NCBI GenBank assembly: GCA_038227875.1
Contig: JBBRPR010000008.1
Span: 64,001-128,000 of the forward strand
Source: Planctomycetota bacterium
GTDB taxonomy: Bacteria > Planctomycetota > SZUA-567 > H5-PLA8
DNA: 64,000 nucleotides
Direction: 5' to 3'
Shown here piece by piece: positions 21,296 to 38,388 of this stretch; the stretch's first letter is position 1, and each line of letters starts with the position of its first letter. The notes beneath the pieces were generated by a model. That model did not search any database. It had not been told where the DNA came from and worked only from the letters and a program-made list of their open reading frames with translations. The position numbers and the translations under genes were made by a program.

Positions 21296-23404
21296 TCACT
21301 TCGGCTTGGGGATCCGGTAGTACGACTCCAGGCTCAGCGTGGCCAAGGCGGTCGAGCCAACCGTGCCCACGTAGGCAAACTTCTGGTACGGAACACTTCC
21401 TTTTTCGTCGCCCGCGTGAATCTGCTGGGCTGGCAAAACTTCATTCAGCGCGGCGCGCCAGCGTTCCCACTCAGGGCCGCTTTCATTCGCCAGACTTGCG
21501 GCCTTGAAGTACGTCGCGTACAGCTTGAAATTCGAACCCTGAACGTTCTCTTCCGCGTTCGCGGGCATGCGCTCCAGCAGCCATGCGGCAGCGCCATTGG
21601 AATGCGTGTTCGTACCGCACAACAAGCGAAGTCCGTAAGCACCCATGGCCGTGCAGCACTCTGCGGTGTTTCCACTACCCGGCGTGTAGTGGAATCCATG
21701 GTCGTTGCTTTCGCAACCGGCCAGGTAATTTGCGGCTTTTTCGAGCATTGCGTCATTGGCGTTGAGCTCACTGCCGCGCGCCAGGTACAGAAACTGCGCA
21801 TACCACGAGGTGATCGACAAGTCGCCAGTAGACTGTGTGTCGCTGACCGTCAGCGGTGTGTAGCGCCACGCGCCGTCGTGGCATTGGTCCAGCGAGGCCT
21901 GAGTGAGCGCACGTCGCGCCGCCTCCACCGTTGCGGGATGGTGGCTCATGATCGCTGCTTCGGCGACCGCGGTCGCGGCCATGGGCTGTTCGTAGCCGTA
22001 ACATCCGGTCTTGGGAGTCAGGAACGCGCCCGTCGTGGACTGATGTTCGATCAGCCACGAGACGCCACGGTGGACATTCTCCGCGTACGGCCCGCTGTCT
22101 TCGCTGTTGCCGCTTCCCAGCAGCGCCAGCAACGCCAGTGATGTCGACGCCACCGCATATTTCGATTCCGCTTCCGCGGCCGCGCCGGGACTCCAGTGGC
22201 CGTCGGCGTCCTGATGCGCCGACAACCAGGCCAGCGCTTCGGAGACCGCCTGCTCGGTTTTCGCCGAGCCGCCGTTGGCCAGCGCAATCTCGGTGTGATG
22301 CGCGCGCTGCTCGACCATCGTCTTCAATTCCTGATCCGCGTCGATTTTGCGCAGCACGCGGGCGAGCGTCCGTGAGGGCGCTTTCTTCTGAGCTGCCTGC
22401 ACCGCCGGCCGGGCCGCCAGACCCAGCGACGCGAGTGTCGCTTCGCTCGCTTCGACATCGCTCGCGTTGGAGCTGTTCAGATTTTCGATCAGGCGCTGAA
22501 TTTTATCCTGAAGCGCCAGGTCGTCCTGCGGAGCCGCTTTGGGCTGCAGCGGAACCGGAGCCGTTTCCATGCGCGCCTGCGGAACTGTTTGCTGAACCGG
22601 CGCGGAAACAGGAGCGGCATGGGCCAGGAACAACGTCAACGCAACCAGCGCAACCGCGCCGGCCAGCGCCACGGCATGGACGGGCTGGAAACTCAAGCCA
22701 GTCTCGCGCGGTTCCGGCAGCGAAACGCGAGGACTCTGCAACAGCGCGTTCCACTGCGCCAGATTGCCAGGCGCAACAGTTGAAGTTCCCGGCGGAGTCG
22801 ACGCCAGTCCGCGCTCGATCATCGCCGCGGAAATGGGAATGCCGGCCAGCACCACCTGCTTGCGCAACCGTTCGACGGCGCGCGTGACCCGGTTCTTCAC
22901 CGCCGATTCCGTCAGCCGCAGTTCCGTTGCGATTTCGCTCAGCGACAGGCCCGCGAAATAGCGCAGTACGACTGGGCGGCGCAGCGATTCGGGGAGCGTT
23001 ACAATTTCGCGCTGCAGCACTTCGGACCATTCGTAGTGTTCGGACGCGTCCATGGTCGGAGTCCTCTCTGCCGGAATGCGATCGCGCTGCTCGCGGCGTT
23101 TGCCGGTGCGCAGCAGGCTGATGGCGAGATTGCAGGCCACGCGCGCAATCCAGGCGCGTGCCGCGGCATCGCTGGAACCTTCAAACTGCCCGGCGTGATC
23201 GCGGATGTGAAGCAGCACCTCCTGAACAATATCTTCTGCAAACGCATCGTCGCGGGTAAAGCGCCGCGCGATGCCCAGCAGCCACGGTCCGTGATCTTCC
23301 AGCAGAATGCCCCACGCTTCGGGATCGCGCGAAACAGCCAGCCGCCGCAGGGCCTCCACAGTACTGAGTCGTTGCAATGTCTCGTGCATAAATAGCGCTC
23401 CCAT
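21296..23404 (-). CDS. ECF sigma factor with TM segment and C-terminal prenyltransferase/squalene-oxidase-repeat domain
   Basis: Sigma2 AEDIVQEV, sigma4 LRYFAGLSLSEIA, TM helix, then ALAWLSAHQDADGHW and WLIEHQ..G repeats. Start could be 23389. Confidence 0.8.
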   Translation of the reverse strand: MGALFMHETLQRLSTVEALRRLAVSRDPEAWGILLEDHGPWLLGIARRFTRDDAFAEDIVQEVLLHIRDHAGQFEGSSDAAARAWIARVACNLAISLLRTGKRREQRDRIPAERTPTMDASEHYEWSEVLQREIVTLPESLRRPVVLRYFAGLSLSEIATELRLTESAVKNRVTRAVERLRKQVVLAGIPISAAMIERGLASTPPGTSTVAPGNLAQWNALLQSPRVSLPEPRETGLSFQPVHAVALAGAVALVALTLFLAHAAPVSAPVQQTVPQARMETAPVPLQPKAAPQDDLALQDKIQRLIENLNSSNASDVEASEATLASLGLAARPAVQAAQKKAPSRTLARVLRKIDADQELKTMVEQRAHHTEIALANGGSAKTEQAVSEALAWLSAHQDADGHWSPGAAAEAESKYAVASTSLALLALLGSGNSEDSGPYAENVHRGVSWLIEHQSTTGAFLTPKTGCYGYEQPMAATAVAEAAIMSHHPATVEAARRALTQASLDQCHDGAWRYTPLTVSDTQSTGDLSITSWYAQFLYLARGSELNANDAMLEKAANYLAGCESNDHGFHYTPGSGNTAECCTAMGAYGLRLLCGTNTHSNGAAAWLLERMPANAEENVQGSNFKLYATYFKAASLANESGPEWERWRAALNEVLPAQQIHAGDEKGSVPYQKFAYVGTVGSTALATLSLESYYRIPKPK

Positions 23405-23917: not shown

Positions 23918-24103
23918 CCACGCCTGTCGCAGACGTTCCCACACCTCTTGCTGGCTTAAACCCGAATGGTCTCCGACGAAGTCATCATCGCCGTACTGGG
24001 TTTTGCAGCATGGACAGATGTCTCCTAGTTGTACGCCAGTCGTGCAGCGAAATTTCTTTCAAGATTATTCTCCAACGCGCCCGCCCACCGTACACTCCCA
24101 CAC

Positions 24104-27100
24104 ATGAACGCCGTAACCGCACCCCATTCGCCCGACGAGGCGCTGCTCGACGACTTTGTCCAGCGGGGCTCTGAGGACGCGTTTCGCCAGCTCGCCGAAC
24201 GCCATGCCGGGCTGGTGCACGGGACGGCGCTGCGGCTGCTCAAGGGCGATGCTGCCGCCGCTGAAGATGCGGCGCAGGCCGTGTTCATCGTCCTTGCGCA
24301 GAAGGCCCGCTCGATCTCCAATCGCGCGGCGCTTCCGGCGTGGCTCTACCGCACCACGCTGCTGGTGGTGGAGAACATCCGCCGGGTCGACGCGCGGCGG
24401 CGAAAGCATGAAGCGGAGGCGGCAAAAATGGCGGAGCTCCATTCACACGCGTCGAATTCAGATCCCGTTGAGACACTGCCGCCCGAAGTCGATGTGGCCA
24501 TCTCGAAACTCAATCCAAAATTGCAGGACGCGCTGGTGCTCCATTATTTGAAAGGCCTGCCGCGGGAAGATGTCGCACACGCGCTGGGCTGTTCGCTGGA
24601 CGCCGTCCACAAGCGGCTCAGCGGCGCGGTCGAAAAATTACGCGCGACGCTCGCCGGCCAGGGCGTCTCGCTCTCCGCGCCCGGTCTGGTGGCGGCGTTG
24701 TCCGCTCAGGCCTTGCACGCAGCTCCGGCCGGCTGTGCCGCAAGCTGCCACGCGGCCGCGCTGGGCGCCGCGAAACTTGCCGCGGCCTCCACCGTTCCCG
24801 CTGGCTTGGCCAAAGGAGCAATCAAGATGCTGTGGTGGTCCCAGGTGAAAACCGTCGCCGTAGTGACCTGCGCCGCGCTCGCGCTGCTGGCGAGTGGGTT
24901 CAGCGTTCAGAAGTATCTTCGCGCCGACGACGCGCCCCTTCCCGAACGTCCGCCCGCGGGCGATGCCAAGCCCGTCGTTGCCGCGCCGCTGCCTTTTCCG
25001 GTCACCAAAGTGATCGGCATTGTGCTGAACAACAAAACCCATCAGCCGATCGCCGGCGTACAAGTGGGCCTCTACTGCCGGGGACCGGAACGCGCGCCGG
25101 AATTCCAATCCGATCATAAGCCGGCGGTGGAACTGAAAGCGAACGGCAGCAACCTGCTGCTGGTTCCTGGAACCGCGTCGCAGAACGGCATTCCTGTCGC
25201 AGTAACCGGCGCGGACGGCAGCTTCGAAATTTCCTTCATGTCGCCACTCCGCCAGCGGCTGCACTGCGATCTGGCGTTGATGGAAACGTCAGCGGTGCCC
25301 TGTCAGTTCACCGCCTACCAGGGCGAAACTGTGCGGCTCGATCCGGTGCAGTTGGAGCCCCGGCAGACCTTTCGCGTCAAAATCGTGGACGATAAAGGCA
25401 ATCCGGTCGCCAATTCCAAGCTCAAAATTTCCGGCAGTGACTACTCCACCGATCAGAAGGGATCTTTCGTGGCCAGTGTGGTGCCGCAAAATGGAATCAA
25501 CTGGGACATCACCGCTCCCGGTTTCGAACTCAAGCGCCAGACGATTAAACGCGCCGACGAAAAGCAGGACGTGGAAATCCGCCTGACGCCTTGCAAACCC
25601 GTGACGGGAAAAGTCGTCGACGCGCAAGGCAGGCCGGTCCCCAACGTCCGAATTTACGCGGGCACCGAATCGATGGGACATCTCCCCAACTGGTATACGG
25701 AAAGCGATGCGAAAGGCGATTTCGTCCTCGCCACGATGCCCGAAAACGGCGCGCCCACGCCGCTCTATCCCACACGCGGCTACGACACCATTGGTGCGAT
25801 TCAGCACGCGAGTCCCGGACAGACCGGCGTCGTACTGCAGCTTTACCCGGCCGGCAGCATCGAAATTTTAGTCGTCGACGAGAAGGGCGCGCCCATGGCG
25901 CATGCGCGGCCTCGATTGATGAGCGACGACATGTCCAAAACCCGCTGGACGCAGACCGACGAGAACGGCGTCGCCGTGATCGAAGGCATGGCGGCCGGCA
26001 GCTTCAAATTGGATCTTCCCAACGTCACCCGGGACGAAAAAGTTCCCCCGCCGCAGCCGGTGACGATCCAGGAAAACCAGACCACGAAAGCCCGCCTGGT
26101 CTGCGAACATCCGGCCGACGCGCGCCCCGTCATCGTCTCTGGATCGCTCGTCGACCGGCAGGGCCAGCCCGTCCTCCACGCCATGGTCATGGCCTGCGTG
26201 CGCAGCGGCGGCGCTTTTCTGGAGTCCGCGCCGCATGGCAATTCCTTTGTCGATGCCGACGGCAAATTCGAACTCGCGCTCTGGCCGGATTCCGAGCCGC
26301 TCAACCGCAGACGCACGCCCATGTGGTCGCCACTGGAACCGGAGGGCGACAACAAGCTCCGCCTCTCAGCCGTTTTCACGGACGGGCAGGGCCGTGAGTA
26401 CTTCGTCGATTCGACCGTTCCCTGGACGGCCGGCACGAAAAACTTCGATGCCGGAAAACTCACCGCCGCGCTCGATCCCGAACGCACCGTCGCCATCGAC
26501 AGCGAGCCGCGCGTCTGGCTGGAGAGAGTACAGGATGCTCAAGGCAGAGACATTCACTGCCGCGCCCTCGCGCCGGCCAACCCCGAAGCCCGCGGCTTGC
26601 GGTTCGTGGTGCGGAACTCGGGTGAGCTAAAAGCGCAGCTGCGGAATTCCACGGGAGAGGTCGTCAGCGTCACCGTTCCCTCAATCAAGTCAGGAGAAAC
26701 TCAGGCGCCTGTCGTGGCCCAATTTGCGTCCCCGCGGAAAGTAACGTTCACGATCCAGGACGAGGACGGCAAGCCGCTGGCGGGTGCGAGATTCTTCAGC
26801 CTTTCGGAGGACGTCAATGCGTTCTCGCAAGGCGTAAATCAAAAGAGCAGCGCGACTGGCGAACTGACGTTCGACTGTGCGTCCAAGTCGGCCGGGAGAT
26901 GTTTGATCTACAGCGGACTGAGCCGTGAACTTTATTTTGTAAACATTCCCGCTGCTGAAACGCCGTTCGTTCAGACGGTTAAAATTGAAAAGGCCAGCGC
27001 CGTACTCTCGGGCCGCGTGACCGACAGCAGCGGCAAGGTCATCGCGATACACCGGCTAAACCTGCAGCTCAATTGCGAGGGTCGCCAGTCCGCCTTGGAA

Positions 27101-27355
27101 TATTGCGAGGTGCCGGTGAAGAACGACGGCACCTACTCCACACCGTTGCCGGGTGGCGTGCAGGTAATGCTCTCCGCGCGAGCTGACGTCCGACCTCAAC
27201 AGTTGGATGGGCGAAGCGACTGGAAAAAAGTCGGCGCCAACCAGAATGTGACGGAGGACCTGACGCTGCTGACGCCCACCGAACAAATGACGCCGAAGCC
27301 TCCCGGACCACCGAAGCCCGCGGCACGCCCGAAAGATTCGAATTCCGATTTCTGA
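24104..27355 (+). CDS. ECF sigma factor with TM segment and multiple carboxypeptidase-regulatory-like (beta-sandwich) repeats
   Basis: AEDAAQAVFIVLAQKA, WLYRT, LHYLKGL..VAHALGCS, TM helix, and repeated G.VVD..G.PV..A motifs. Confidence 0.85.
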   Translation: MNAVTAPHSPDEALLDDFVQRGSEDAFRQLAERHAGLVHGTALRLLKGDAAAAEDAAQAVFIVLAQKARSISNRAALPAWLYRTTLLVVENIRRVDARRRKHEAEAAKMAELHSHASNSDPVETLPPEVDVAISKLNPKLQDALVLHYLKGLPREDVAHALGCSLDAVHKRLSGAVEKLRATLAGQGVSLSAPGLVAALSAQALHAAPAGCAASCHAAALGAAKLAAASTVPAGLAKGAIKMLWWSQVKTVAVVTCAALALLASGFSVQKYLRADDAPLPERPPAGDAKPVVAAPLPFPVTKVIGIVLNNKTHQPIAGVQVGLYCRGPERAPEFQSDHKPAVELKANGSNLLLVPGTASQNGIPVAVTGADGSFEISFMSPLRQRLHCDLALMETSAVPCQFTAYQGETVRLDPVQLEPRQTFRVKIVDDKGNPVANSKLKISGSDYSTDQKGSFVASVVPQNGINWDITAPGFELKRQTIKRADEKQDVEIRLTPCKPVTGKVVDAQGRPVPNVRIYAGTESMGHLPNWYTESDAKGDFVLATMPENGAPTPLYPTRGYDTIGAIQHASPGQTGVVLQLYPAGSIEILVVDEKGAPMAHARPRLMSDDMSKTRWTQTDENGVAVIEGMAAGSFKLDLPNVTRDEKVPPPQPVTIQENQTTKARLVCEHPADARPVIVSGSLVDRQGQPVLHAMVMACVRSGGAFLESAPHGNSFVDADGKFELALWPDSEPLNRRRTPMWSPLEPEGDNKLRLSAVFTDGQGREYFVDSTVPWTAGTKNFDAGKLTAALDPERTVAIDSEPRVWLERVQDAQGRDIHCRALAPANPEARGLRFVVRNSGELKAQLRNSTGEVVSVTVPSIKSGETQAPVVAQFASPRKVTFTIQDEDGKPLAGARFFSLSEDVNAFSQGVNQKSSATGELTFDCASKSAGRCLIYSGLSRELYFVNIPAAETPFVQTVKIEKASAVLSGRVTDSSGKVIAIHRLNLQLNCEGRQSALEYCEVPVKNDGTYSTPLPGGVQVMLSARADVRPQQLDGRSDWKKVGANQNVTEDLTLLTPTEQMTPKPPGPPKPAARPKDSNSDF

Positions 27356-27362
27356 CGCTCCA

Positions 27363-27494
27363 CTACTTCGCCGCTTTCTTGCAGCGATACGCCCACGTCT
27401 CGTGGTTGTTGTAGATCACCGTCACGTTCCGTTCCGGGTCGTAGTAGCCGGCGACGTTGCCGATTTTCGGCTGCTCGCCCGGTGATACCCGCAA
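27363..27494 (-). pseudogene. Probable 3' remnant of a beta-propeller protein gene (or a 43-aa small ORF)
   Basis: Manual translation gives LRVSPGEQPKIGNVAGYYDPERNVTVIYNNHETWAYRCKKAAK* with strong GC3 codon bias. Confidence 0.45.
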
Positions 27495-27525
27495 TGCCGT
27501 TCCTCGCCCATCTAACACAAAAGCT

Positions 27526-27645
27526 GCTCATTCACGCTCATTTACGCTCAAACACGCTCAAACACGCTCATTCCTGCTCATTCGCGCTCATTCCTGCTCA
27601 TTTCAAACCATTTGCTATCAAACACGCTCATTTTAGCTCATTCGC
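27526..27645. repeat. Degenerate 10-bp tandem repeat (GCTCA+5 nt), about 12 units
   Basis: GCTCATTCAC GCTCATTTAC GCTCAAACAC GCTCAAACAC GCTCATTCCT..., phase kept throughout. Confidence 0.9.
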
Positions 27646-27940: not shown

Positions 27941-28816
27941 CTACTCTGAGCCCTGGCCCCTGACCCCTGGCCGCTCGCGGCTTGCCGCGCCCCTTCGCCG
28001 TCGTCGAATTCTCCATTCAGAAAGGATTCCAACCAAAATAAGAATGAAAAGTGCCGTCAGCACATTGAGTACGATGCGGGAAGGAAAGTAAGTCGTTGCC
28101 TCCACGTCTGGACACGCAGCAAGCATCGATTGGTCTATCGTTGAGCCATGGTTCAGCTGTTCAGTCCAGTGATGCGTGGAAATCCGCGCCTCAAACGGCC
28201 ATCCGTAACTATCAAATGCCGAGGGATCAGATGACATGCCCTGTCGGCGCACATTTGCAAATAGGAACGCGCTCGACAGCAACATGAGCAGCATTGCCGT
28301 GCCGAGGTGAATATGAAAAATGCTCCGCTTGATCGGCAGGGATGTCGCCCCGGGCGTGCCCAATCTGCGAACGACCAGGGTCATGAACGCAAGCAGGAGC
28401 AGCCAGATCAAAATGTCGTATAAAAAATTGTCGTACCCATCCTCGGATCCCGGAGCAACGAAAAAGAGCGTCGATGGCGGAGACGATTCTGGATTCCAGC
28501 CGCTCGGAGTCGGTTTGACGCAAGTGGAACGCAACGAAAATGGAAACGGCCAGCCGAACCTGCTGTCGCAGCGGCAACAGTAGTCCGCTGGAATCTGGCC
28601 GTGCTCCAATGGATTTTGTTCGTTCCAGAATTGGATATTCTTTTGTGATTCGACTGCATTCTCAAGAGTTATGGGATGAAGTGTACTGTTGAAGAAATTG
28701 GGTTCGAGATAATCAACAGATCGCGGAATAAGATTCAGTCCAACGACAATAAAAATTGCGAGGAGGGACACTGCGCAACGCAAAACCCTTAGAGACCGGT
28801 CAGTCATGGTGAACAT
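27941..28816 (-). CDS. Hypothetical membrane protein with internal duplication (GWPF repeats)
   Basis: Two TM-loop-TM units with RFGWPF and SYGWPF. Lower GC than neighbours. Start uncertain. Confidence 0.65.
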   Translation of the reverse strand: MFTMTDRSLRVLRCAVSLLAIFIVVGLNLIPRSVDYLEPNFFNSTLHPITLENAVESQKNIQFWNEQNPLEHGQIPADYCCRCDSRFGWPFPFSLRSTCVKPTPSGWNPESSPPSTLFFVAPGSEDGYDNFLYDILIWLLLLAFMTLVVRRLGTPGATSLPIKRSIFHIHLGTAMLLMLLSSAFLFANVRRQGMSSDPSAFDSYGWPFEARISTHHWTEQLNHGSTIDQSMLAACPDVEATTYFPSRIVLNVLTALFILILVGILSEWRIRRRRRGAASRERPGVRGQGSE

Positions 28817-29077
28817 CCTAATGCCACCATTTAGCAAATGAGCGCGCATTATCGGCACCTCGTGCGCCGCGTGCACCAAAGAACCGCCCCCAACCGATGT
28901 AACATTCAGTAACATTATGTCGCATCCAAGACACAGGAACGAACATGCCCCGACCCCCGCCAACCTCGATTCCCCACGCGCCCGCGCCCATCCAATCCAC
29001 AATCCGCAATGCAGTTGTCTCCGCCCATTCATCACTCATCATTCATCACACATCGCTCAGAACCCCCGGAGGTCGGG

Positions 29078-30472
29078 ATGCGGACGAAACTTCAGGCGCC
29101 GTGGCGGTACGCGATCGTTGCGTTCACCGTGCTCGCCGCCTTTGCCCTCACCTGGTACGTGCCGTGGCTTAAATTCCACGGCTCGTTCCTGCTTTTCTTC
29201 GGCGCGGTCACCTTCAGCGCCTGGTTCGGCGGGCGAGGCCCAGGCTTGCTCGCCTGCCTGTTGGCGGGGCTGCTGTGGGACTACTACATCTTCGATCCGC
29301 CGGGCGAATTCTCCACCAGCGCCGAGGCCATCGTCCCGTTGATCATGTTCATCGTCGTCGCGATGCTCACCGGCTCACTGACCACGGGGCTCTCCGAAGC
29401 CGAAGCCGCCGCGCGTAAGCAGCAGCAATGGCTGCAGGTGACGCTCTCCAGCATCGGCGACGGCGTGATCGCCACAGACGCCGCCGGCAAGGTCACGTTC
29501 ATGAACGATGTCGCCGAATCGCTCACTGGCTGGCGGCGGGCGCAGATGAATGGCCAGGCGCTTGAAAACGTCTTGAACATCCAGAACGGCGCGTCAGCGG
29601 CGGACGGCAACCCGCTCAAGCGCGTCTTCCTCGAGCGTACGAAAGTCGACGCGCCGGCCGGCGCGCTGCTCTCCGCGGCCAATGGAACGCGCCTGCCGAT
29701 CGAAGGACACGCGGCGCCGATCAAGGACGCCGATGACACGATGCTCGGCGCGGTCGTCGTCTTCCGCGACATCCACGAACGCGAGGAAGCACGCGGCAAA
29801 ATCCTGGAGTACCAGGAGCGCCTGCGCTCGATGGCTTCCGATCTGCTCCTGACCGAAGAGCGCGAACGCCGCGCGATCGCCGATGGCCTCCACGACCGCG
29901 TCGGCCAGTCCCTGGCGCTGACGCGCATCAAGCTCGGCACGCTGCGCGGCCGGCTCAGCGACACGGACGTCATCGCGCAGATCGACGATATCGCGGGGGT
30001 GCTCAAGCAGATGATCGGCGAAATCCGCTCGCTGACTTTCGAACTCAGCCCGCCGATCCTCTACGAATTCGGGCTCGACGCGGCGCTGGAATGGCTCACC
30101 ACCCACGTCAAGAAGCAGCACGATCTGTCCTGCGAATTCAAAACCAGCGGCGTGGCGCGGCCCTTCGCGCCAAAGACCGACGTGCTGCTCTTCCAGGCCA
30201 CGCGCGAACTGCTCACCAACGTCGTCAAGCACGCGCAGGCCAAACAGGCGACCGTCACGGTGCTTAAAGAGACCGATTGCGTGAGCGTGAAAGTCGAAGA
30301 TAATGGAGTCGGCTTCGATACACCCGACGGCATGCTGGCGCCGGGCCAGACCAAGGGCTTTGGCCTGTTCAGCATCCGTGAGCGGATCGAGCATTTGGGC
30401 GGAAAGTTCGAGATTCGTTCCGGGCGCGGGCACGGAACTTGCATTTCACTCACGTTGCCGGTGCTGACATGA
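29078..30472 (+). CDS. Membrane (DUF4118-like) PAS sensor histidine kinase, HisKA_3 type (HK1)
   Basis: AWFGGRGPG TM domain, SIGDGVIATD PAS, ERRAIADGLHD, ELLTNVVKHA, DNGVGFD and GFGL. GGAGG RBS. Confidence 0.93.
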   Translation: MRTKLQAPWRYAIVAFTVLAAFALTWYVPWLKFHGSFLLFFGAVTFSAWFGGRGPGLLACLLAGLLWDYYIFDPPGEFSTSAEAIVPLIMFIVVAMLTGSLTTGLSEAEAAARKQQQWLQVTLSSIGDGVIATDAAGKVTFMNDVAESLTGWRRAQMNGQALENVLNIQNGASAADGNPLKRVFLERTKVDAPAGALLSAANGTRLPIEGHAAPIKDADDTMLGAVVVFRDIHEREEARGKILEYQERLRSMASDLLLTEERERRAIADGLHDRVGQSLALTRIKLGTLRGRLSDTDVIAQIDDIAGVLKQMIGEIRSLTFELSPPILYEFGLDAALEWLTTHVKKQHDLSCEFKTSGVARPFAPKTDVLLFQATRELLTNVVKHAQAKQATVTVLKETDCVSVKVEDNGVGFDTPDGMLAPGQTKGFGLFSIRERIEHLGGKFEIRSGRGHGTCISLTLPVLT

Positions 30473-31155
30473 GCTTACGAGCGAGTTCCAAGCGGGTTGA
30501 GAGCCAGACCATGGTGCGCGTGTTGCTGGTCGACGATCATAAAATCATGCGCGCCGGGCTGCGCTCGCTGTTGGAGAAGGAATCCGACATCGAAGTCGTC
30601 GCCGAGGCCGAGAACGGCGAGCAGGCCGTACGTCTGGCGCGCGAGAACAAGCCTGACATCGTGATCATGGACGTCGCGATGCCCGACATGAACGGCATCG
30701 AGGCCGCGACGCGCATCCGCGCCCTGCTGCCCAACGCGCGCATCATCGCGCTCACCATGCACTCCGATAAGAACTACCTGACCGGCATGCTGCGTGCCGG
30801 AACCGCCGGTTACCTGCTGAAAGACTGCGCCGCCGAGGAGTTGGTGCAGGCGATCAGACAGGTGATCGCGGGGAAGGGCTTCATCAGCCCGGAAATCGCG
30901 CCGCTGATTCTGGAAGATTATTCCGGCCAGACCCCGGCCGCGGCGAAGAGCGATTCGGTGCTTAACCCGAAAGAAATCGAAGTCCTGCAACTGCTCGCGG
31001 AAGGCATGGGCATCAAGGAGATCGCGGAGAAACTGGAGGTAAGCGGCAAAACGATCGAACGCTACAGAACGCAAGTCATGGAAAAATTGCAGCTCTTCAC
31101 CGTCGCGGAGCTGACCAAATACGCAATCCGGAAAGGCATCACAACCTTGGCGTAG
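30469..31155 (+). CDS. NarL/LuxR family response regulator (RR1)
   Basis: LVDDH, MDVAMP, LTMH, YLLK and a LuxR HTH. Start at 30469 (ATGA overlap) or 30511. Confidence 0.93.
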   Translation: MSLRASSKRVESQTMVRVLLVDDHKIMRAGLRSLLEKESDIEVVAEAENGEQAVRLARENKPDIVIMDVAMPDMNGIEAATRIRALLPNARIIALTMHSDKNYLTGMLRAGTAGYLLKDCAAEELVQAIRQVIAGKGFISPEIAPLILEDYSGQTPAAAKSDSVLNPKEIEVLQLLAEGMGIKEIAEKLEVSGKTIERYRTQVMEKLQLFTVAELTKYAIRKGITTLA

Positions 31156-31216
31156 TACTTACTTTTTTTCGCGCAAAGTGCCCAACTCTGGGCAGCATGA
31201 CTATTCAACAGCAACC

Positions 31217-32722
31217 TTACGAAGCCAAACCCAGATTCACCAAGGCTCCAGAAAGATAATTTTCGGCGGCGACCCGAGCCCGGAACTCCCGGCTGTTCGC
31301 ATCGACCGTGCTCTCCACGCCCCGCGCATACGCCGCCAACGCCGCCCGCCGCACCGCCTGAGCCCAATGACTCAGCGCCACCTGAACATTCTGTGCGCCC
31401 AGTGATTCCAGCAACTCGTTGAAAGGATTTTCCAATGTACGCCAATAGAGCTGCTGAACTGTTGCCAGCCCTTCGTGCTGTGGCAGGCCGACGAGGAGTT
31501 GCATCGCCTGGCTCAACGCCGCCCCCGTGGACTCGCAGAGCTCCAAACCGAAATGCAGTCCACTCGAGGCTTCAGAATCGTCCACGAGCCGCTGCGGAAT
31601 TGGCAGCGCCAGATCCGTCTGCGCCAGCACCTTCGCGCGCTCGTTGGCCATGCCGAGTAGCTCGCACTGGATCGCCGGCGCGACGGAGAAGCAACCGCTG
31701 CGGCAGAGTTCCTCAAACTGCCTCAACGCCGCAGGACGCTGATCGCGGTCGCTGCCGCGGCGCCAGAACAGGTAGCCGCAATCGCGCCACGGCGTCCGGT
31801 CGATGGTCTGGCGCACGCCCTGCGCCCGGCCGGCGTACAGATAGGAAAGCGTGAGCGGATCATGTGGACGCCACGAGGACGCAGACGAATGCGACGCATC
31901 GAGCAATTCGCCCTGCGCGTAATACATCAAGCGCACACCGTTGGGTTCGTGGATGAGCTGGACGCAGCGGCTCTGCCAGGTCAGCAACTCAAGGTACCCG
32001 CCACAGGCGCGTACGCCCGGCGACCGGATGTTGCTCTCGCGTTCCCACGCGGGCCGGCCGAGCGGCCGGTCGTCGCGCTGAATCAGCAGGTTGAGCATCA
32101 GCGTTTCGAAAAGCGTACGGCCCTTCAAGAAGACGGCCGTCTGCCCCACCAACGGAGCGTGCGTGAAATTGGGATGCTTGCCAAAGCGCGCGCTGCAGGT
32201 GCCCGCTCCGCCACCCAGCGCGAAAGCCTGATTGGCGATCAGCGAGCGGGCTGCCGCTGCAAACGAGAGCAGGGGAGGCGCGTCGCCGCCGCCCAGGTGT
32301 GTCGCAATTTCGACAGCGCCTTCGGGCGGCGCATCGGGCGTCAACTGCGAGGCATGTCGCGGAGTCGCCAGCTGGAAATTCGAGCACTGAAAGAAGGGCT
32401 GAGTCGGATGGAAGAGATCAAAGCGTGTGCGCCAGAGCTCGATATAGTCTTCGATCTTCTGAATGGGGAAGTGTCGCTGCTGAAAGATGGAGGACCATTC
32501 AGCGCTGGTGCGAGGTCCCTGCAGCGCACTGTGGAGCAGAGCCAGCAGCAGGCGGTATAGGCCCGTCTTCACGAGCGGCGAATCGCAGCTCAGATCGGAA
32601 ATCGCATCGGCTTCGTGAAGAATTTCACGCAGGCTGTATTCCCGCCGAGTGTGCTCGCGCGTGACACAGGATAGCCAGGGTTCGTCGATCAGATTGAAGC
32701 TGCGTGCGGTGGCGTTGACCAT
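31217..32722 (-). CDS. cse1: Solitary type I-E CRISPR large subunit Cas8e/Cse1 (CasA)-like protein
   Basis: FNLIDEPW, YRLLLALL, RFDLFHPTQPFFQ, GRTLFETLMLNL, PAWER, LTWQSR, DP..Y, WRD and YW..LE..F motifs. 501 aa. Confidence 0.88.
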   Translation of the reverse strand: MVNATARSFNLIDEPWLSCVTREHTRREYSLREILHEADAISDLSCDSPLVKTGLYRLLLALLHSALQGPRTSAEWSSIFQQRHFPIQKIEDYIELWRTRFDLFHPTQPFFQCSNFQLATPRHASQLTPDAPPEGAVEIATHLGGGDAPPLLSFAAAARSLIANQAFALGGGAGTCSARFGKHPNFTHAPLVGQTAVFLKGRTLFETLMLNLLIQRDDRPLGRPAWERESNIRSPGVRACGGYLELLTWQSRCVQLIHEPNGVRLMYYAQGELLDASHSSASSWRPHDPLTLSYLYAGRAQGVRQTIDRTPWRDCGYLFWRRGSDRDQRPAALRQFEELCRSGCFSVAPAIQCELLGMANERAKVLAQTDLALPIPQRLVDDSEASSGLHFGLELCESTGAALSQAMQLLVGLPQHEGLATVQQLYWRTLENPFNELLESLGAQNVQVALSHWAQAVRRAALAAYARGVESTVDANSREFRARVAAENYLSGALVNLGLAS

Positions 32723-33098
32723 TCAATGTCCCAAATAACCGTATGCAACGTGTAGCTAACCACATTCCACATTTATAAAAGACGTGTCACGTATTGATCT
32801 GAGAGTCCAGCGATAGACGTAAAATGTCTAAGATTAGACATCAAAAATATACAAGTGATCAGGATTGATCACGCTTTCAGGTGGTTCCTTTTCACCATGA
32901 TGACCCACTTTTACGAATGTGCTGATGGTTAAAAGCCACACGTCCCATCCGTCGTTGTGGCGACGAACGTGGTCGAAATGGGAAATCTCACATGTGAACA
33001 TAATCGTGTTGTTACATGGGCACAGGACCGACTTAGCGAGCGGTTTTAGAGACACTGCGCGCCGCGTCAGACAGCCATCGCCCGGTGTGCATGCGACC

Positions 33099-33115
33099 TT
33101 GGCACAGCATTTGGT
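33099..33115 (+). promoter_or_regulatory. Putative sigma54-like promoter of glnK-amt1 (variant -12 GG)
   Basis: TTGGCACAGCATTTGGT, 16/17 identical to the site upstream of amt2. Confidence 0.6.
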
Positions 33116-33256
33116 CTACTCCCTCTGTACTGACTCAAAAGCAGTGCGCCGAGCACAACGAAAAAACGCTGCGAAAGATCGCTGACTAGCCGGGCTGGTG
33201 TGGCCCGGTGACTGTGAACTCTTGTCTCTAAAGACGTAAAAAAAGGGAGATACCGA

Positions 33257-33601
33257 ATGAACTATGTGATCGCCGTCATCCAGCCGCCGAAGTTAGACGC
33301 AGTGCGTGAGGCGCTGACCAAGATTGGAATTTCCGGCGTCACAGTTTCAGACGCTCAAGGTTACGGCCGGCAGAAAGGCCACACGGAAGTCTACCGCGGC
33401 CACGAGTACGCCGTGAATTTTGTGCGCAAGGTCAAGCTGGAAATCGCCTGCGACGAACACCTGGTCGACAAGGTCGTCGAAGCGATCTCGACGTCAGCCA
33501 AGTCCGACGGCGGCAAGCTCGGCGACGGCAAGATTTTCGTCTTCGATCTCAAGGAAGTCGTGCGCATCCGCACCGGCGAACGCGGCGCGGGCGCCATCTA
33601 A
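33257..33601 (+). CDS. glnK: P-II family nitrogen regulator
   Basis: GYGRQKGHTEVYRGHEY T-loop, GDGKIF and RIRTGE motifs. Linked to amt. Confidence 0.95.
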   Translation: MNYVIAVIQPPKLDAVREALTKIGISGVTVSDAQGYGRQKGHTEVYRGHEYAVNFVRKVKLEIACDEHLVDKVVEAISTSAKSDGGKLGDGKIFVFDLKEVVRIRTGERGAGAI

Positions 33602-33823: not shown

Positions 33824-35626
33824 ATGAAAGGCAATCGTTTCGAGGGGGTAAGACTTTCTTTCAAAGAAAAGTTTTCCCGTCTTGGCGTCCGGCTACGGGA
33901 TCCGCAGTGGCGCAAGTACGGTGGGCTGTTGATCGCCGGTAAGGTCTTGGGCGTTGCGGCAGTGTTGGTGGCGATGATCGGCGTGCCGGCACTCGTGTCG
34001 CACACGCAGAAGGTCGTTGCACCGAAGGCGTATGCTGAAGAAGCGAAGCCCGAAGAAGCCAAGCCGGCCACACCGGCTCCGGCCGCGGCTCCCGCTGCAC
34101 CGGCCGCTCCCGCGGCACCTGGCGCTCCTGCTGCTCCCGCGGCCGCGGCTCCTGCCGCTCCGCCGGAAGGCACTCCGCCGGCCATGGACAAGCTCGCTGC
34201 CAGCGACATCGTCAATCCGTTGAACACCGTCTGGGTGCTCGTGGCCGCCTTCCTCGTCTTCGGCATGCAGGTCGGCTTCACGATGCTCGAAGCCGGCTTC
34301 TGCCGCTCGCGTGAAACGGTCAACGTGCTCGTCGAGTGCGTGTTCGATACCTGTCTGTGCGGTATCCTCTTCTACGCGTTCGGCTTTGCGTTCATGTTCG
34401 GCCACGGCAATGGTTTCATCGGCTGGGGCGACGGTACGCCGGGCAACACCTGGTTCTTCCTGAAAAATGCGCCGGCGACGTACGAAACGACGGGCGTGGC
34501 GTTCCTGGCCATCTGGATCTTCCAGTTCGCGTTCGCCGACACCTGCTCCACGATCACCTCCGGCGCGATGATTGGCCGCACGGGCTTCGTGGGCGACATT
34601 CTGTACAGTATCTGCGTCACGGGTTTCATCTACCCGATCATTGGACATTGGGCGTGGGGTCCGGACGGCTTCCTGTACACGATGGGAACCGCCGATCATT
34701 TCCTGCCTTCACTGGGCATGAATTTCCACGACTTCGCCGGATCGACAGTGGTGCACACCATCGGCGGCATGATCTCATTGGCCGGCGCGATCGTGCTCGG
34801 ACCGCGGTTGGGCCGCAAGTTCAAGCGTGACGGTGGCGCTCCGATGTTGCCCCATGATTTGACCATCGCCGTCAGCGGCGGTCTGCTCCTCTGGTTCGGC
34901 TGGTACGGCTTCAATCCCGGCAGCACGCTCAGCGCGATGGACATGGGCGGCATCGGCCGCGTCGCCGCGAACACCACGCTGGCCGCCTGCACCGGCGGTA
35001 TGGCCGCAGTCTTCTACATGTTCCTGCAGTCGAAGAAGTGGGACGCCGGCGCGATCACCAACGGCTTCCTGGCCGGTCTCGTCGCCATCACCTGCCCCTG
35101 CTACTGGGTGAGCCCGACGGGCGCGTGCATCCTCGGCGCCATCGCCGGTGTGATCGTCATGCTCGGCATCGAAGTGCTCGAATACCTGCGCATCGACGAC
35201 CCGATCGGCGCGGTTCCGGTCCATGGCATGTGCGGAATCTGGGGCACCATCTCGCTGGGTCTGTTCGCCAGCGGTGAATACGGCCTGGCCGCTCAGACCG
35301 GCGCCGACACGACCACCAAGTTCGCGGGTCTGTTCTACGGTGGCGGTACCAGCGTGCTGTACGCGCAGTGCATCGGCAGCGCCATTGTGACGCTCGCGTC
35401 GCTGGGCTCGGCCTTCGTGGTCATGTACGCGGTGAACGCCATGGGCGTGCTGCGTCTGTCCAAGGAGCACGAACTGTACGGTATGGACTTGGCCGAACAC
35501 GGCATCTCGGCTTACCCCGAGTACGTGATCGCGCCATCCGCTGCGCCTTCGGGCATGTCGCCTGAAATGGTCAACGCCGCTTCGCCGATGACGGCGAGTG
35601 CCGTGGCGCGCACCGCGACCGTTTAA
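33824..35626 (+). CDS. amtB: Ammonium transporter (amt1) with N-terminal extension
   Basis: DFAGSTVVH, WFGWYGFNPGS, NGFLAGLVAIT and DDP...VHG motifs. Confidence 0.95.
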   Translation: MKGNRFEGVRLSFKEKFSRLGVRLRDPQWRKYGGLLIAGKVLGVAAVLVAMIGVPALVSHTQKVVAPKAYAEEAKPEEAKPATPAPAAAPAAPAAPAAPGAPAAPAAAAPAAPPEGTPPAMDKLAASDIVNPLNTVWVLVAAFLVFGMQVGFTMLEAGFCRSRETVNVLVECVFDTCLCGILFYAFGFAFMFGHGNGFIGWGDGTPGNTWFFLKNAPATYETTGVAFLAIWIFQFAFADTCSTITSGAMIGRTGFVGDILYSICVTGFIYPIIGHWAWGPDGFLYTMGTADHFLPSLGMNFHDFAGSTVVHTIGGMISLAGAIVLGPRLGRKFKRDGGAPMLPHDLTIAVSGGLLLWFGWYGFNPGSTLSAMDMGGIGRVAANTTLAACTGGMAAVFYMFLQSKKWDAGAITNGFLAGLVAITCPCYWVSPTGACILGAIAGVIVMLGIEVLEYLRIDDPIGAVPVHGMCGIWGTISLGLFASGEYGLAAQTGADTTTKFAGLFYGGGTSVLYAQCIGSAIVTLASLGSAFVVMYAVNAMGVLRLSKEHELYGMDLAEHGISAYPEYVIAPSAAPSGMSPEMVNAASPMTASAVARTATV

Positions 35627-35654
35627 GTTCGAGTCGTCTGTCTTCGGAGTACGG

Positions 35655-35688
35655 TGGGCCGGACGAAAGTCCGGCCCATCTCTTTTTT
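35655..35688 (+). terminator. Intrinsic terminator after amt1
   Basis: TGGGCCGGAC-GAAA-GTCCGGCCCA followed by TCTCTTTTTT. Confidence 0.85.
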
Positions 35689-35749
35689 CAGACCTATCGG
35701 CTATAGTGGGTGCAGTGCACAGCCGCCCCAATTCGCAGGGAATCAACCC

Positions 35750-37159
35750 ATGGACCTCAAACAAAGACCAGCATACCTCCGCTACGGGGTGGCCATTGGC
35801 GCCGTGGTGGTCACGCTGGCGGTGACGCATCTCGTACCGTGGCTGGTGCGGCGCGAATCGCTGGTGCTCTTCTTTGGCGCGGTGACCTTCAGCGCCTGGT
35901 ACGGCGGACGAGGGCCGGGGTTTCTCGCCTGCGTGCTGGCGGCGATTGTGACCAACGTGCTGATCTACGAGCCGGCGTTCACCATCACGTGGAGCGCCGA
36001 AGCCATCATACCGCTGATGATCTTCATGGCGGTGGCCGCGTTGATCAGTTCGCTGACGGCCAATCTGGCGCGTTCCGAACGGCAATCGCGCGAGCACGAA
36101 GAACTGCTCGACGTCACCCTCAAATGCATCGCGGAAGCCGTGATCTGCACCGACAGCGCCGGGCGCATCACGTTTGTGAATCAGGCCGCCAAGGAGTTGA
36201 TCGGCCTCGACCCCAAAGGTCGCGAGATCACCGAGCTCTTTGAAAGTGAGCAGACAAAAAAGGAAGCGCTCCAGGCGCTGTTCCTGCGGCCGCTGCGTGA
36301 AGGCGCGGTCGGCGAAATTGGCGGACAGACGCGGCTGATCATCAGCCCCGCGCGACCGCTGGTGGAAGGCGCAGTCGCGCCAATCAAGGACGCCAACAAT
36401 CAGCTCAAAGGTTCGGTCATCGTCGTCCGCGACGTCACCGATCGCGAAAACGCCAAGTCGAAGATTCTCGACTACCAGGAACGTCTTCGTTCGATGGCCA
36501 CGCAACTGTCGCTGACGGAAGAACGCGGCCGTCGCGCCATCGCCACGGGACTTCATGATCGCGTCGGGCAGTCGCTGGCGCTCACGCGCATCAAGTTGTC
36601 GACCTTGCGCGACGACATCGGCGATCCCAAGCTGGCCGGGCAACTCGACGACGTCGTGCGTCTCATGCGCGATGTCCTGACCGAAATCAAAACGCTGACG
36701 TTCGAATTGAGCCCGCCGATTCTGTACGAGCTGGGACTGGACGCGGCCGTCGAATGGCTGATCGGCAATTTTCAAGGGCAGTACAAGCTGGAGTGCAGCT
36801 TCGAGCGCGAAGGCCCCGCCGAACGCCATTCGCAGGAAATGGAGATCGTGCTTTTTCAAACCGCGCGCGAACTGTTGACCAACATCGTCAAACACGCGCC
36901 CGCGGCGCATGCGACGCTGAAGCTGGTCAACGCGCACGATCGTGTCCGGCTCGTGGTCTCCGACGATGGCCCGCCAGTCCATCCGCCGCGCGCTCCGCTG
37001 GCGATCAATGCGGGGGGCGGATTTGGGTTGTTCAGCATCCGCGAGCGCATCTGCCACATGGGCGGTTCGTTCGAGCTGGGCGCGCCGCAGGGCCGCGGCA
37101 CTTGCGTCTCCGTCAGTCTGCCCGTTATAGTAAATCAAACCGCCCTGGGTTCTGCATAA
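35750..37159 (+). CDS. Membrane PAS sensor histidine kinase (HK2), paralog of HK1
   Basis: Same architecture as HK1. Identical LHDRVGQSLALTRIKL and FELSPPILYE segments. Confidence 0.92.
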   Translation: MDLKQRPAYLRYGVAIGAVVVTLAVTHLVPWLVRRESLVLFFGAVTFSAWYGGRGPGFLACVLAAIVTNVLIYEPAFTITWSAEAIIPLMIFMAVAALISSLTANLARSERQSREHEELLDVTLKCIAEAVICTDSAGRITFVNQAAKELIGLDPKGREITELFESEQTKKEALQALFLRPLREGAVGEIGGQTRLIISPARPLVEGAVAPIKDANNQLKGSVIVVRDVTDRENAKSKILDYQERLRSMATQLSLTEERGRRAIATGLHDRVGQSLALTRIKLSTLRDDIGDPKLAGQLDDVVRLMRDVLTEIKTLTFELSPPILYELGLDAAVEWLIGNFQGQYKLECSFEREGPAERHSQEMEIVLFQTARELLTNIVKHAPAAHATLKLVNAHDRVRLVVSDDGPPVHPPRAPLAINAGGGFGLFSIRERICHMGGSFELGAPQGRGTCVSVSLPVIVNQTALGSA

Positions 37160-37810
37160 ATGGCCATCCGCGTTCTGCTTGTTGAAGATCATAAAATCAT
37201 GCGCGAAGGTCTGCGCGCGCTGCTGGAACGCCAGAGCGATATTCAAATCGCCGCGGAAGTGGAGCGGGGGGGCGACGCGCTTCAGGCCGTTCGCGACAAC
37301 AAGCCCGACGTCGTGATCATGGATGTCGGCCTGCCCGATCTCAACGGCATCCAGGCGACGGAGCAGATTCTCGCGGAACTGCCGGGCACAAAAATCCTGG
37401 CGCTGACCATGCATGCCGAACGCGGGTACGTCAACGGGATGCTCCGCGCCGGCGCGATGGGATATCTGTTGAAAGACTGCGCCGCCGACGAACTCGTGCG
37501 CGCCGTGCGCGAAATTGTGGCGGGGAAGGGCTACATCAGTCCGGAAGTGACGCGCGATATTTTGAAAGACTTCTCCAAGCCCAATGCCGCGCCAGCGTCG
37601 ATAGAAGATCCGACGTTGAATGAAAAGGAAACGTCGGTGCTGCGCGGCATTGCCGAAGGCCAGAGCATGCACGATATCGCCAAGGGATTGGACCTGAGCG
37701 TCAAAACTGTCGAGCGTTACCGCGCGCAGATCATGGACAAGCTGCAGATTTTCTCCGTCGCCGAACTGACCAAGTACGCGATCCGCAGCGGGCTGTCCAA
37801 ACTCACGTAA
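37160..37810 (+). CDS. NarL/LuxR family response regulator (RR2), paralog of RR1
   Basis: Receiver plus LuxR HTH. Shares YLLKDCAA and VAELTKYAIR with RR1. Confidence 0.93.
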   Translation: MAIRVLLVEDHKIMREGLRALLERQSDIQIAAEVERGGDALQAVRDNKPDVVIMDVGLPDLNGIQATEQILAELPGTKILALTMHAERGYVNGMLRAGAMGYLLKDCAADELVRAVREIVAGKGYISPEVTRDILKDFSKPNAAPASIEDPTLNEKETSVLRGIAEGQSMHDIAKGLDLSVKTVERYRAQIMDKLQIFSVAELTKYAIRSGLSKLT

Positions 37811-38371: not shown

Positions 38372-38388
38372 TTGGCACACCATTTGGT
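38372..38388 (+). promoter_or_regulatory. Putative sigma54-like promoter of amt2 (variant -12 GG)
   Basis: TTGGCACACCATTTGGT. Confidence 0.6.

Follow-up and report, generated by a model that had tools for sequence, protein, structure and literature searches.

A solitary full-length Cas8e with a replaced L1 loop on a planctomycete chromosome, a possible Cascade-independent derivative

We analysed a stretch of 64,000 nucleotides (the window) from a Planctomycetota bacterium, positions 64,001 to 128,000 of contig JBBRPR010000008.1 (C8:64001-128000) in the assembly GCA_038227875.1, which comprises 9,338,466 bases in 176 contigs and is 88.1% complete with 4% contamination. The gene in question is cse1/cas8e, an open reading frame (ORF) of 501 amino acids on the minus strand (31217..32722, ATG start), whose product, denoted here P0001, belongs to the family of the large subunit of the type I-E effector complex, Cascade. 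In the window the gene is surrounded by two-component systems, glnK, amt, extracytoplasmic function (ECF) sigma factors and recA. It is convergent with HK1, a histidine kinase gene (DUF4118-PAS-HisKA_3-HATPase; 29009-30472, plus strand), and RR1, a response regulator gene (REC-LuxR; 30439-31155, plus strand), and divergent from glnK, encoding a P-II protein (33257-33601, plus strand), and from the ammonium transporter gene amt (33824-35626, plus strand), beyond which lie HK2, RR2 and then amt2; these neighbours are given as context only. The gene arrangement is as described in the initial annotation of this DNA, which was made from the sequence alone. Its statement that a cas operon could not fit downstream also holds, the opposing stop of RR1 being 61 bp from that of cse1, with a short hairpin, TGCCCA...TGGGCA, in the spacer between them (31156..31216).

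The ORF is matched by Cse1 profiles along its whole length. Residues 10-463 of P0001 align to positions 1-449 of the 450 positions of the Pfam family CRISPR_Cse1 (PF09481; E 1.7e-81, 275.2 bits at a cut-off of 24.7), the NCBIfam model TIGR02547 casA_cse1 yields 152.5 bits (cut-off 70.05), and four Cas8e models of PADLOC match as well, in agreement with the initial annotation, which had noticed Cse1 motifs throughout an intact ORF. In a phmmer search against PDB sequences, residues 7-488 align to CasA of Thermus thermophilus (E 2e-39). The AlphaFold2 model, built on an alignment of 66 sequences (mean predicted local distance difference test score, pLDDT, 91.5; predicted template modelling score, pTM, 0.92), has the Cas8e fold, that is, an N-terminal globular domain and, at the C terminus, a bundle of four helices. 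The first 23 Foldseek matches of the model are exclusively Cse1/Cas8e chains, and the best of them is Thermus CasA (4an8_A; E 3.5e-29), on which the model superposes with template modelling (TM) scores of 0.80/0.85. The bundle (codons 383-496; 31235..31576, minus strand) consists of helices at residues 383-411, 417-443, 446-472 and 477-496, and retains the conserved W427, L430, F434, W453, A461, A482 and L494. Thus, given the full-length profile, PDB and fold matches, this is a genuine, whole Cas8e and no chance ORF.

The gene is also native in its composition. The GC content at third codon positions (GC3) is 0.745, the genome mean being 0.75 (standard deviation 0.07), the coding periodicity is normal, and the codon index of 0.64 is like that of the neighbouring genes with modest or low expression. 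The net charge and isoelectric point of P0001 are not remarkable. A second allele, P0122, comes from another assembly; it is likewise 501 amino acids long and differs by three conservative replacements (I34V, I139V, L143M). In sequencing run X2, from a different study, small contigs cover 32090-32265 and 32626-32882 with 2 and 7 differences, respectively (97-99% identity), the latter contig bridging the start codon of cse1. The RNA library X8 contains two contigs of 151 nt at 31211-31494 that lie over the 3' end of cse1 with 1 and 0 differences; these are not counted as expression, as their strand is ambiguous and carry-over of DNA is possible.

The initial annotation had seen no other cas genes and no repeat-spacer array in the 64 kb, and the same proved to be the case for the whole assembly. 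In genome-wide Pfam searches P0001 is the single Cse1, and Cas7e, Cse2, Cas1, Cas6e, Cas5 and I-E Cas2 have no matches in the 9.34 Mb. The sensitivity of such searches is limited, as among 14 control genomes the Pfam families Cse1, Cas7e, Cse2, Cas6e and I-E Cas2 matched only Thermus and missed E. coli. Therefore, a second search was performed with six hidden Markov models (HMMs), for Cas3, Cse2, Cas7, Cas5, Cas6 and Cas1, built from the closest operon-encoded loci (L010, L011, L013 and L089); in the first three of these, cas3 lies upstream, followed by cse1, cse2 and cas7 (in L013, cse2 is not detected by Pfam). Against 127,874 six-frame pieces of the genome of at least 40 amino acids each, none of the six models produced a match below E 0.1: the best values were 0.32 for Cas3 and 0.14 for Cse2, and the remaining four had no match up to E 10. 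Two candidates for Cas3 from the Pfam searches were rejected. The single Cas3_HD match (25 bits, contig C7) is an HDOD protein (158 bits), and the Cas3-like_C_2 match (contig C72) is RecG, this Pfam family also matching all 14 control genomes.

Two genome-wide repeat scans for arrays returned only tandem repeats in coding sequence, their periods ranging from 15 to 168 bp; a detector of this type, run on 162 related loci as a positive control, picked up arrays in 73 of them. A degenerate I-E repeat motif, which matches each array of six control loci 10-90 times, gave just 6 scattered matches in the genome, each with 2 mismatches, on 6 contigs. No cas fragments were found flanking cse1. We conclude that, as far as an assembly of 88% completeness can show, the gene has no Cascade, Cas3, adaptation genes or array, although such an assembly does not prove absence.

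To what extent is such solitude usual for this family? Among 160 retrieved related loci (at least 4 pairs of which look like one contig filed twice), cas7e was present in all 114 in which the sequence downstream of the cse1 homologue extends for 2.5 kb or more. Among 60 relatives of the organism, five genomes contain weak Cse1 matches (24-36% identity). Cse1 matches were obtained in four of 16 genomes of the same family, none of them close to P0001, and in five of 400 genomes sampled from the phylum (E 1e-20 or better, 29-33% identity). Wherever the flanks allow a check, the matches in relatives from the family and the phylum adjoin cas3, cse2 or cas7, as in L191 (cse1-cse2-cas7-cas5-cas6-cas1 and an array) and L192 (cse1-cse2-cas7). 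Thus, with cas7e beside cse1 in 114 of 114 loci and cas neighbours in the relatives, a solitary Cas8e is exceptional, an outlier among everything retrieved.

Two features of operon-encoded homologues are recorded here in their own right. The locus L089 (L089:5738-14566) has the order cse1-cse2-cas7-cas5-cas6, and a large surface-repeat protein is encoded where cas3 normally sits, so that it may be a Cascade without adjacent Cas3. Fusions of Cse1 and Cse2 were observed twice: a 653-aa ORF in L003 (G008:C52), followed by cas7, matches the HMMs of both families, and a 647-aa database protein, P0127, has both Pfam domains.

P0001 also departs from canonical Cas8e in one motif. At codons 131-142 (32297..32332, minus strand) its L1 loop is degenerate, PPEGAVEIATH standing in place of the canonical ASGNNATLFDH, with I-A-T-H substituted for LFDH. 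Of the 133 homologues that share a locus with cas7e, 130 have the Phe of L1 and 131 its His; the three exceptions to Phe are W or a shifted variant containing F. In a profile alignment (hhalign), residues F129-V130-N131-Q132 of E. coli CasA fall on the LFDH part of the motif. In E. coli, F129-Q132 contact the 5' handle of the CRISPR RNA (crRNA), and the L1 loop (residues 130-143) is a short helix that is inserted into the Cas5 pore and influences recognition of the protospacer adjacent motif (PAM) (PMC5965380, a review); DNA binding that depends on the PAM requires L1. In the model of P0001 there is a low-confidence short helix at residues 134-142.

The Gly-rich loop FALGGGAGT (codons 167-175; 32198..32224, minus strand), on the other hand, is retained. 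It is identical or nearly so in P0001, in the three other L1-less proteins introduced below and in their sister group, and aligns in hhalign with the GFGGG stretch of E. coli. By the E. coli residue numbers, FALGGGAGT would correspond to the named glycine loop, which reads the PAM in the minor groove. The glycine loop is described as one of three PAM-reading elements (PMC6546366). Hence, P0001 has the Gly-rich loop of the Cas8e/Cse1 family and lacks its L1 motif. Compared to Cas8e of a type I-E system, such as CasA of T. thermophilus (PDB 4AN8/4F3E), it is similar in the two-domain fold, the full profile match and the Gly-rich loop, and different in having no cas neighbours or array in the assembly, in the replaced L1 and in its long branch. 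By its sequence and predicted fold P0001 is a member of the Cas8e family, but it lacks two hallmarks of a working type I-E large subunit, namely the L1 motif and a place in an operon with an array, and we therefore do not file it as a part of a type I-E system.

If P0001 were a subunit acting in trans, the Cascade that it serves would be encoded on a plasmid that was not binned or in genomic sequence missing from the assembly. There is some room for this in an assembly of 176 contigs that is 88.1% complete, and type I-E systems do occur in the same family, in the genomes with Cse1 mentioned above. On the other hand, Cascade operons possess their own cse1 (114 of 114 loci), the L1 anchor of P0001 is gone, the 9.34 Mb contain not even one good copy of the I-E repeat, and the assembly yielded no cas1, cas2 or cas3. 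We consider action in trans improbable, and the proposal of the initial annotation that the protein is an alternative or dominant-negative subunit of a Cascade encoded elsewhere finds no Cascade in the assembly to apply to, nor a mobile-element or anti-defence setting at the locus.

Relatives of P0001 were sought among 5.8 billion protein clusters. The nearest are P0002-P0004 (384-393 aa), which share 49-53% identity with P0001 and 62-70% among themselves, so that the branch comprises four 90%-identity clusters; a protein search seeded with P0002 revealed no further member of this near group. The next tier, P0005-13, consists of full-length proteins with 34-39% identity, and those of them with retrieved contigs are operon-encoded. 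Scans of genome and metagenome loci returned only relatives at 41% identity or less, the contigs that encode P0002 (143 kb), P0003 (12.4 kb) and P0004 (3.4 kb) not being among them. In a maximum-likelihood tree of 66 sequences, P0001-P0004 form one clade (approximate likelihood-ratio support, SH-aLRT, 100), whose stem measures 0.57 changes per column and which is nested within the group that holds P0005-13. The paths from the shared node amount to 1.07-1.17 changes per column for P0001-P0004, versus 0.48-0.79 for the operon-encoded sisters. As judged from this tree, P0001-P0004 are a fast-evolving branch of four members.

The metagenomic Cse1-like proteins P0002-P0004 share with P0001 not only the clade but also the loss of L1 and the conservation of the Gly-rich loop and of the N-terminal core. 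They differ in that nine L1 residues are deleted rather than substituted, and in that they end, in the alignment, before the four-helix bundle, which P0001 retains. A split gene as the origin of the truncated P0002-P0004 was considered and rejected, as no short protein among those sharing 5-residue words with the query matches residues 380-501.

For a gene of this kind, two main alternatives should be distinguished. Either cse1 is the chance survivor of an I-E locus that has otherwise disappeared, its frame open but functionless, or the protein was retained in some other role. If the whole protein drifted freely, the loss of conserved positions should not be limited to one motif. We considered 84 alignment columns that are at least 85% conserved in 62 canonical sequences. 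P0001 retains 70 of them, the canonical proteins 71-84 and P0002-P0004 54-55. The losses in P0001 affect three of the four conserved L1 columns and 11 of the 80 other conserved columns (69 retained), several of the 11 being conservative changes; the less conserved G-N-N ahead of the L1 motif is lost as well. Since L1 is rewritten and the rest is conserved, the loss is targeted, for free drift of the whole protein should have decayed the rest too. The same tendency is observed within the clade, in which the branches add up to about 1.7 changes per column: identical residues in all four proteins occur in 46 of 67 columns highly conserved in canonical sequences, versus 16 of 65 variable ones (Spearman 0.30, p 2e-8). 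We therefore favour the interpretation that the remainder of the fold has probably been under purifying selection in this branch.

A decaying relic would readily account for the missing partner genes and array, for the decay of the motif most closely tied to the function of Cascade, for the faster evolution of the branch compared to its sisters, for a count of retained positions just under the canonical range and for the C-terminal truncation of three of the relatives; in addition, isolated cas loci are often taken as remnants (PMC5294841). It fits less well with decay confined to L1, with a 1.5-kb frame that is intact in two alleles differing by three conservative residues, with clade conservation that tracks structural constraint over the summed branches within the clade, and with native codon usage and coding periodicity in a gene that has no cas fragments beside it. 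Taken together, conservation, codon usage, the alleles and the absent cas fragments favour a protein that would have stayed useful after L1 stopped mattering. Thus, a dead relic is possible though rather unlikely, and we rank retention of the protein above it.

The explanation that we favour is that P0001 is a retained, guide-less derivative of Cas8e that is independent of Cascade; we give it a probability of roughly 45%, slightly below even odds. A branch of Cas8e has lost L1, by overwriting in P0001 and by deletion in P0002-P0004; under this explanation, the Cas8e scaffold would have been retained for another binding task, with DNA or a protein as the partner, and cse1 would be expressed from a promoter of its own in the AT-rich spacer head-to-head with glnK. 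The retained Gly loop of P0001 hints at DNA as the partner. The explanation is built on what is observed for P0001, namely its identity and fold, its solitude in the assembly, the specific loss of L1, the conserved remainder and the native codons; we infer that the protein is functional today and works without Cascade. A broader claim, that a small Cas8e lineage left Cascade altogether, shed L1 (and, in three of four members, also the bundle) and persists as single genes under purifying selection, is put forward more tentatively still. The exaptation suggested in the initial annotation is thus supported indirectly, by the loss of L1, by an L1-less clade with conservation that follows structural constraint and by the native codons, and its specific nitrogen and trans roles are not supported.

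Several points weigh against a retained, Cascade-independent protein. Non-specific DNA binding by E. coli Cse1 requires L1 (PMC3727216, a second review), so that this side of the mechanism may have gone along with the loop. The bundle of P0001 has not diverged beyond what canonical proteins show, the ratio of C-terminal to N-terminal domain identity being 0.71 (canonical range 0.58-0.94), which is also compatible with its having left Cascade fairly recently. P0002-P0004 might sit in a variant Cascade operon, in which case the P0001 gene would be a leftover of such a system, and cas genes or loci found in isolation are usually considered remnants (PMC5294841). Arrays can fail to assemble, and the assembly is, as noted, incomplete and fragmented. 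The RNA-library cover of cse1 is too thin to count as expression, and the genus is represented by a single genome among those searched, so that there is no close relative for synteny or for the ratio of nonsynonymous to synonymous substitution rates (dN/dS). In a separate observation, the operon-encoded Cse1 homologues of L078 and L156 carry a variant L1, SMTFTDTL(T/A)NHQ instead of GNNxxLFDH, and some L1 variation is thus tolerated inside Cascade operons.

The spacer between the starts of cse1 and glnK (32723..33256) is 534 bp long and AT-rich (48% GC), and it must contain the cse1 promoter. A scan of 31000-33400 for sigma-70-type promoters found none, an Rfam scan of the same region yielded no family at threshold, and no repeats that would suggest insertion were found flanking cse1. 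At 32855-32872, inside the shared spacer and 133 bp upstream of the cse1 start, there is a palindrome with perfect arms, GTGATCA-N4-TGATCAC, which the scan marked as resembling a terminator on the minus strand and which could be an operator.

A divergent position next to glnK and amt could mean that cse1 encodes a regulator tied to the nitrogen status, acting with PII/GlnK, with the ammonium transporters or with the two LuxR-type two-component systems, as the initial annotation had proposed. The position itself, head-to-head with glnK-amt and between two paralogous kinase-regulator pairs, is what speaks for it. Against it, no conserved linkage was observed: none of the 16 family genomes contains a close Cse1, no relative shares the neighbourhood of cse1, glnK and a two-component system, and the one good match to HK1 in these genomes (G015, 56% identity) lies in an unrelated context, beside a Ser/Thr kinase and with neither glnK nor cse1 nearby. 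The promoter elements point in the same direction. A sigma-54-like 17-nt element, TTGGCACAGCATTTGGT, is located at 33099-33115 on the plus strand, its promoter-like stretch spanning 33100-33114, about 140 bp before glnK, and a near-identical element, the two sharing the form TTGGCACA(G/C)CATTTGGT, occurs at 38372-38388 on the plus strand, about 190 bp before amt2, the flanking sequence being otherwise unrelated. The element fits the -24/-12 promoter of sigma-54 with GG replacing GC at -12; over the whole window, one-mismatch matches to it are not above chance (4 found, 6 expected). Facing glnK and amt2 only, it probably marks a sigma-54-type promoter for these two genes and not for cse1. A nitrogen regulator is therefore highly unlikely in our estimate, and a tie to nitrogen regulation is no part of the favoured explanation.

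The two kinase-regulator pairs are of some interest by themselves. The DUF4118-PAS-HisKA_3 kinase and REC-LuxR genes at 29009-31155 are paralogous to those at 35654-37810 (both on the plus strand; HK1 and HK2 are 48% identical), and the 12-kb stretch that contains both pairs and the two amt genes has the appearance of an ammonium-sensing module that was duplicated, cse1 lying between the copies.

Documented cases of Cas exaptation comprise Cas1 in casposons, Cascades carried by transposons and viral Cas homologues serving as anti-CRISPRs. Among the latter, AcrIB3 is a homologue of Cas5 and AcrIB4 of the C-terminal domain of Cas8b, and 358 orphan viral cas genes have been predicted (bioRxiv 10.1101/2023.06.24.545427). 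P0001 resembles these orphans in being a homologue of a Cascade subunit outside a CRISPR-Cas locus and in forming a clade of its own. The viral proteins are borne by phages or prophages and act on a resident Cascade, AcrIB4 corresponding to the C-terminal 90 residues only, whereas P0001 is chromosomal and full length, with no Cascade found for it to act on. By analogy with AcrIB3 and AcrIB4, which join and disable Cascade (same preprint), P0001 might be a decoy or poison subunit directed against foreign I-E systems. This seems very remote: cse1 lies among chromosomal housekeeping genes, on no phage, prophage or plasmid and in no anti-defence cluster, a viral contig collection contained 0 relatives, and loss of the L1 anchor makes entry into Cascade less likely.

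Two other comparisons concern cas genes of cellular genomes. DevT (Cas8c) of Myxococcus xanthus, together with DevR and DevS, is reported to have a regulatory role in host physiology (PMC3983513). Both DevT and P0001 are of the Cas8 family, DevT being of another subtype and encoded by a gene that is not solitary: it is accompanied by cas7, cas5 and an array in a type I cas operon. The isolated cas loci surveyed by Zhang and Ye (2017, PMC5294841) are similar to our case as cas genes without a companion CRISPR; a locus in that survey comprises at least three cas genes, so that a single Cas8e is outside its scope. Our literature searches found no report of a large Cascade subunit or a Cas8e lineage surviving alone as a conserved chromosomal gene.

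If the broader claim of a Cas8e lineage outside Cascade is true, it would be the first case of a type I-E large effector subunit domesticated for a cellular role that needs no guide, in this genome encoded head-to-head with a glnK-amt operon of the sigma-54 type. If the L1-less clade is indeed stand-alone, it would provide a natural experiment on the Cas8e scaffold without crRNA and Cas5/Cas7, and loss of the L1 Phe and His would be a simple sequence signature for further cases. If, instead, the gene is a relic, it would be a clean example of selective decay of a cas gene and a warning against inferring immunity from one cas match.

Several other features of the window lie on the HK1 side of cse1. 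At 27494-27643, between an ECF-sigma fusion gene and an ORF of 364 amino acids, a 10-bp unit (ACGCTCATTC / ACGCTCAAAC) is repeated head-to-tail about 15 times. The 364-aa ORF (27941-29035, minus strand) has no Pfam match and a GC content of 0.53 with GC3 of 0.58, versus about 0.75 in the genome, and may be foreign DNA or no gene. ECF-type sigma factors fused to large C-terminal parts are encoded at 21296-23404 (minus strand) and 24029-27355 (plus strand), one of these parts containing prenyltransferase/squalene-hopene-cyclase-like repeats and the other CarboxypepD_reg and Big_1 domains.

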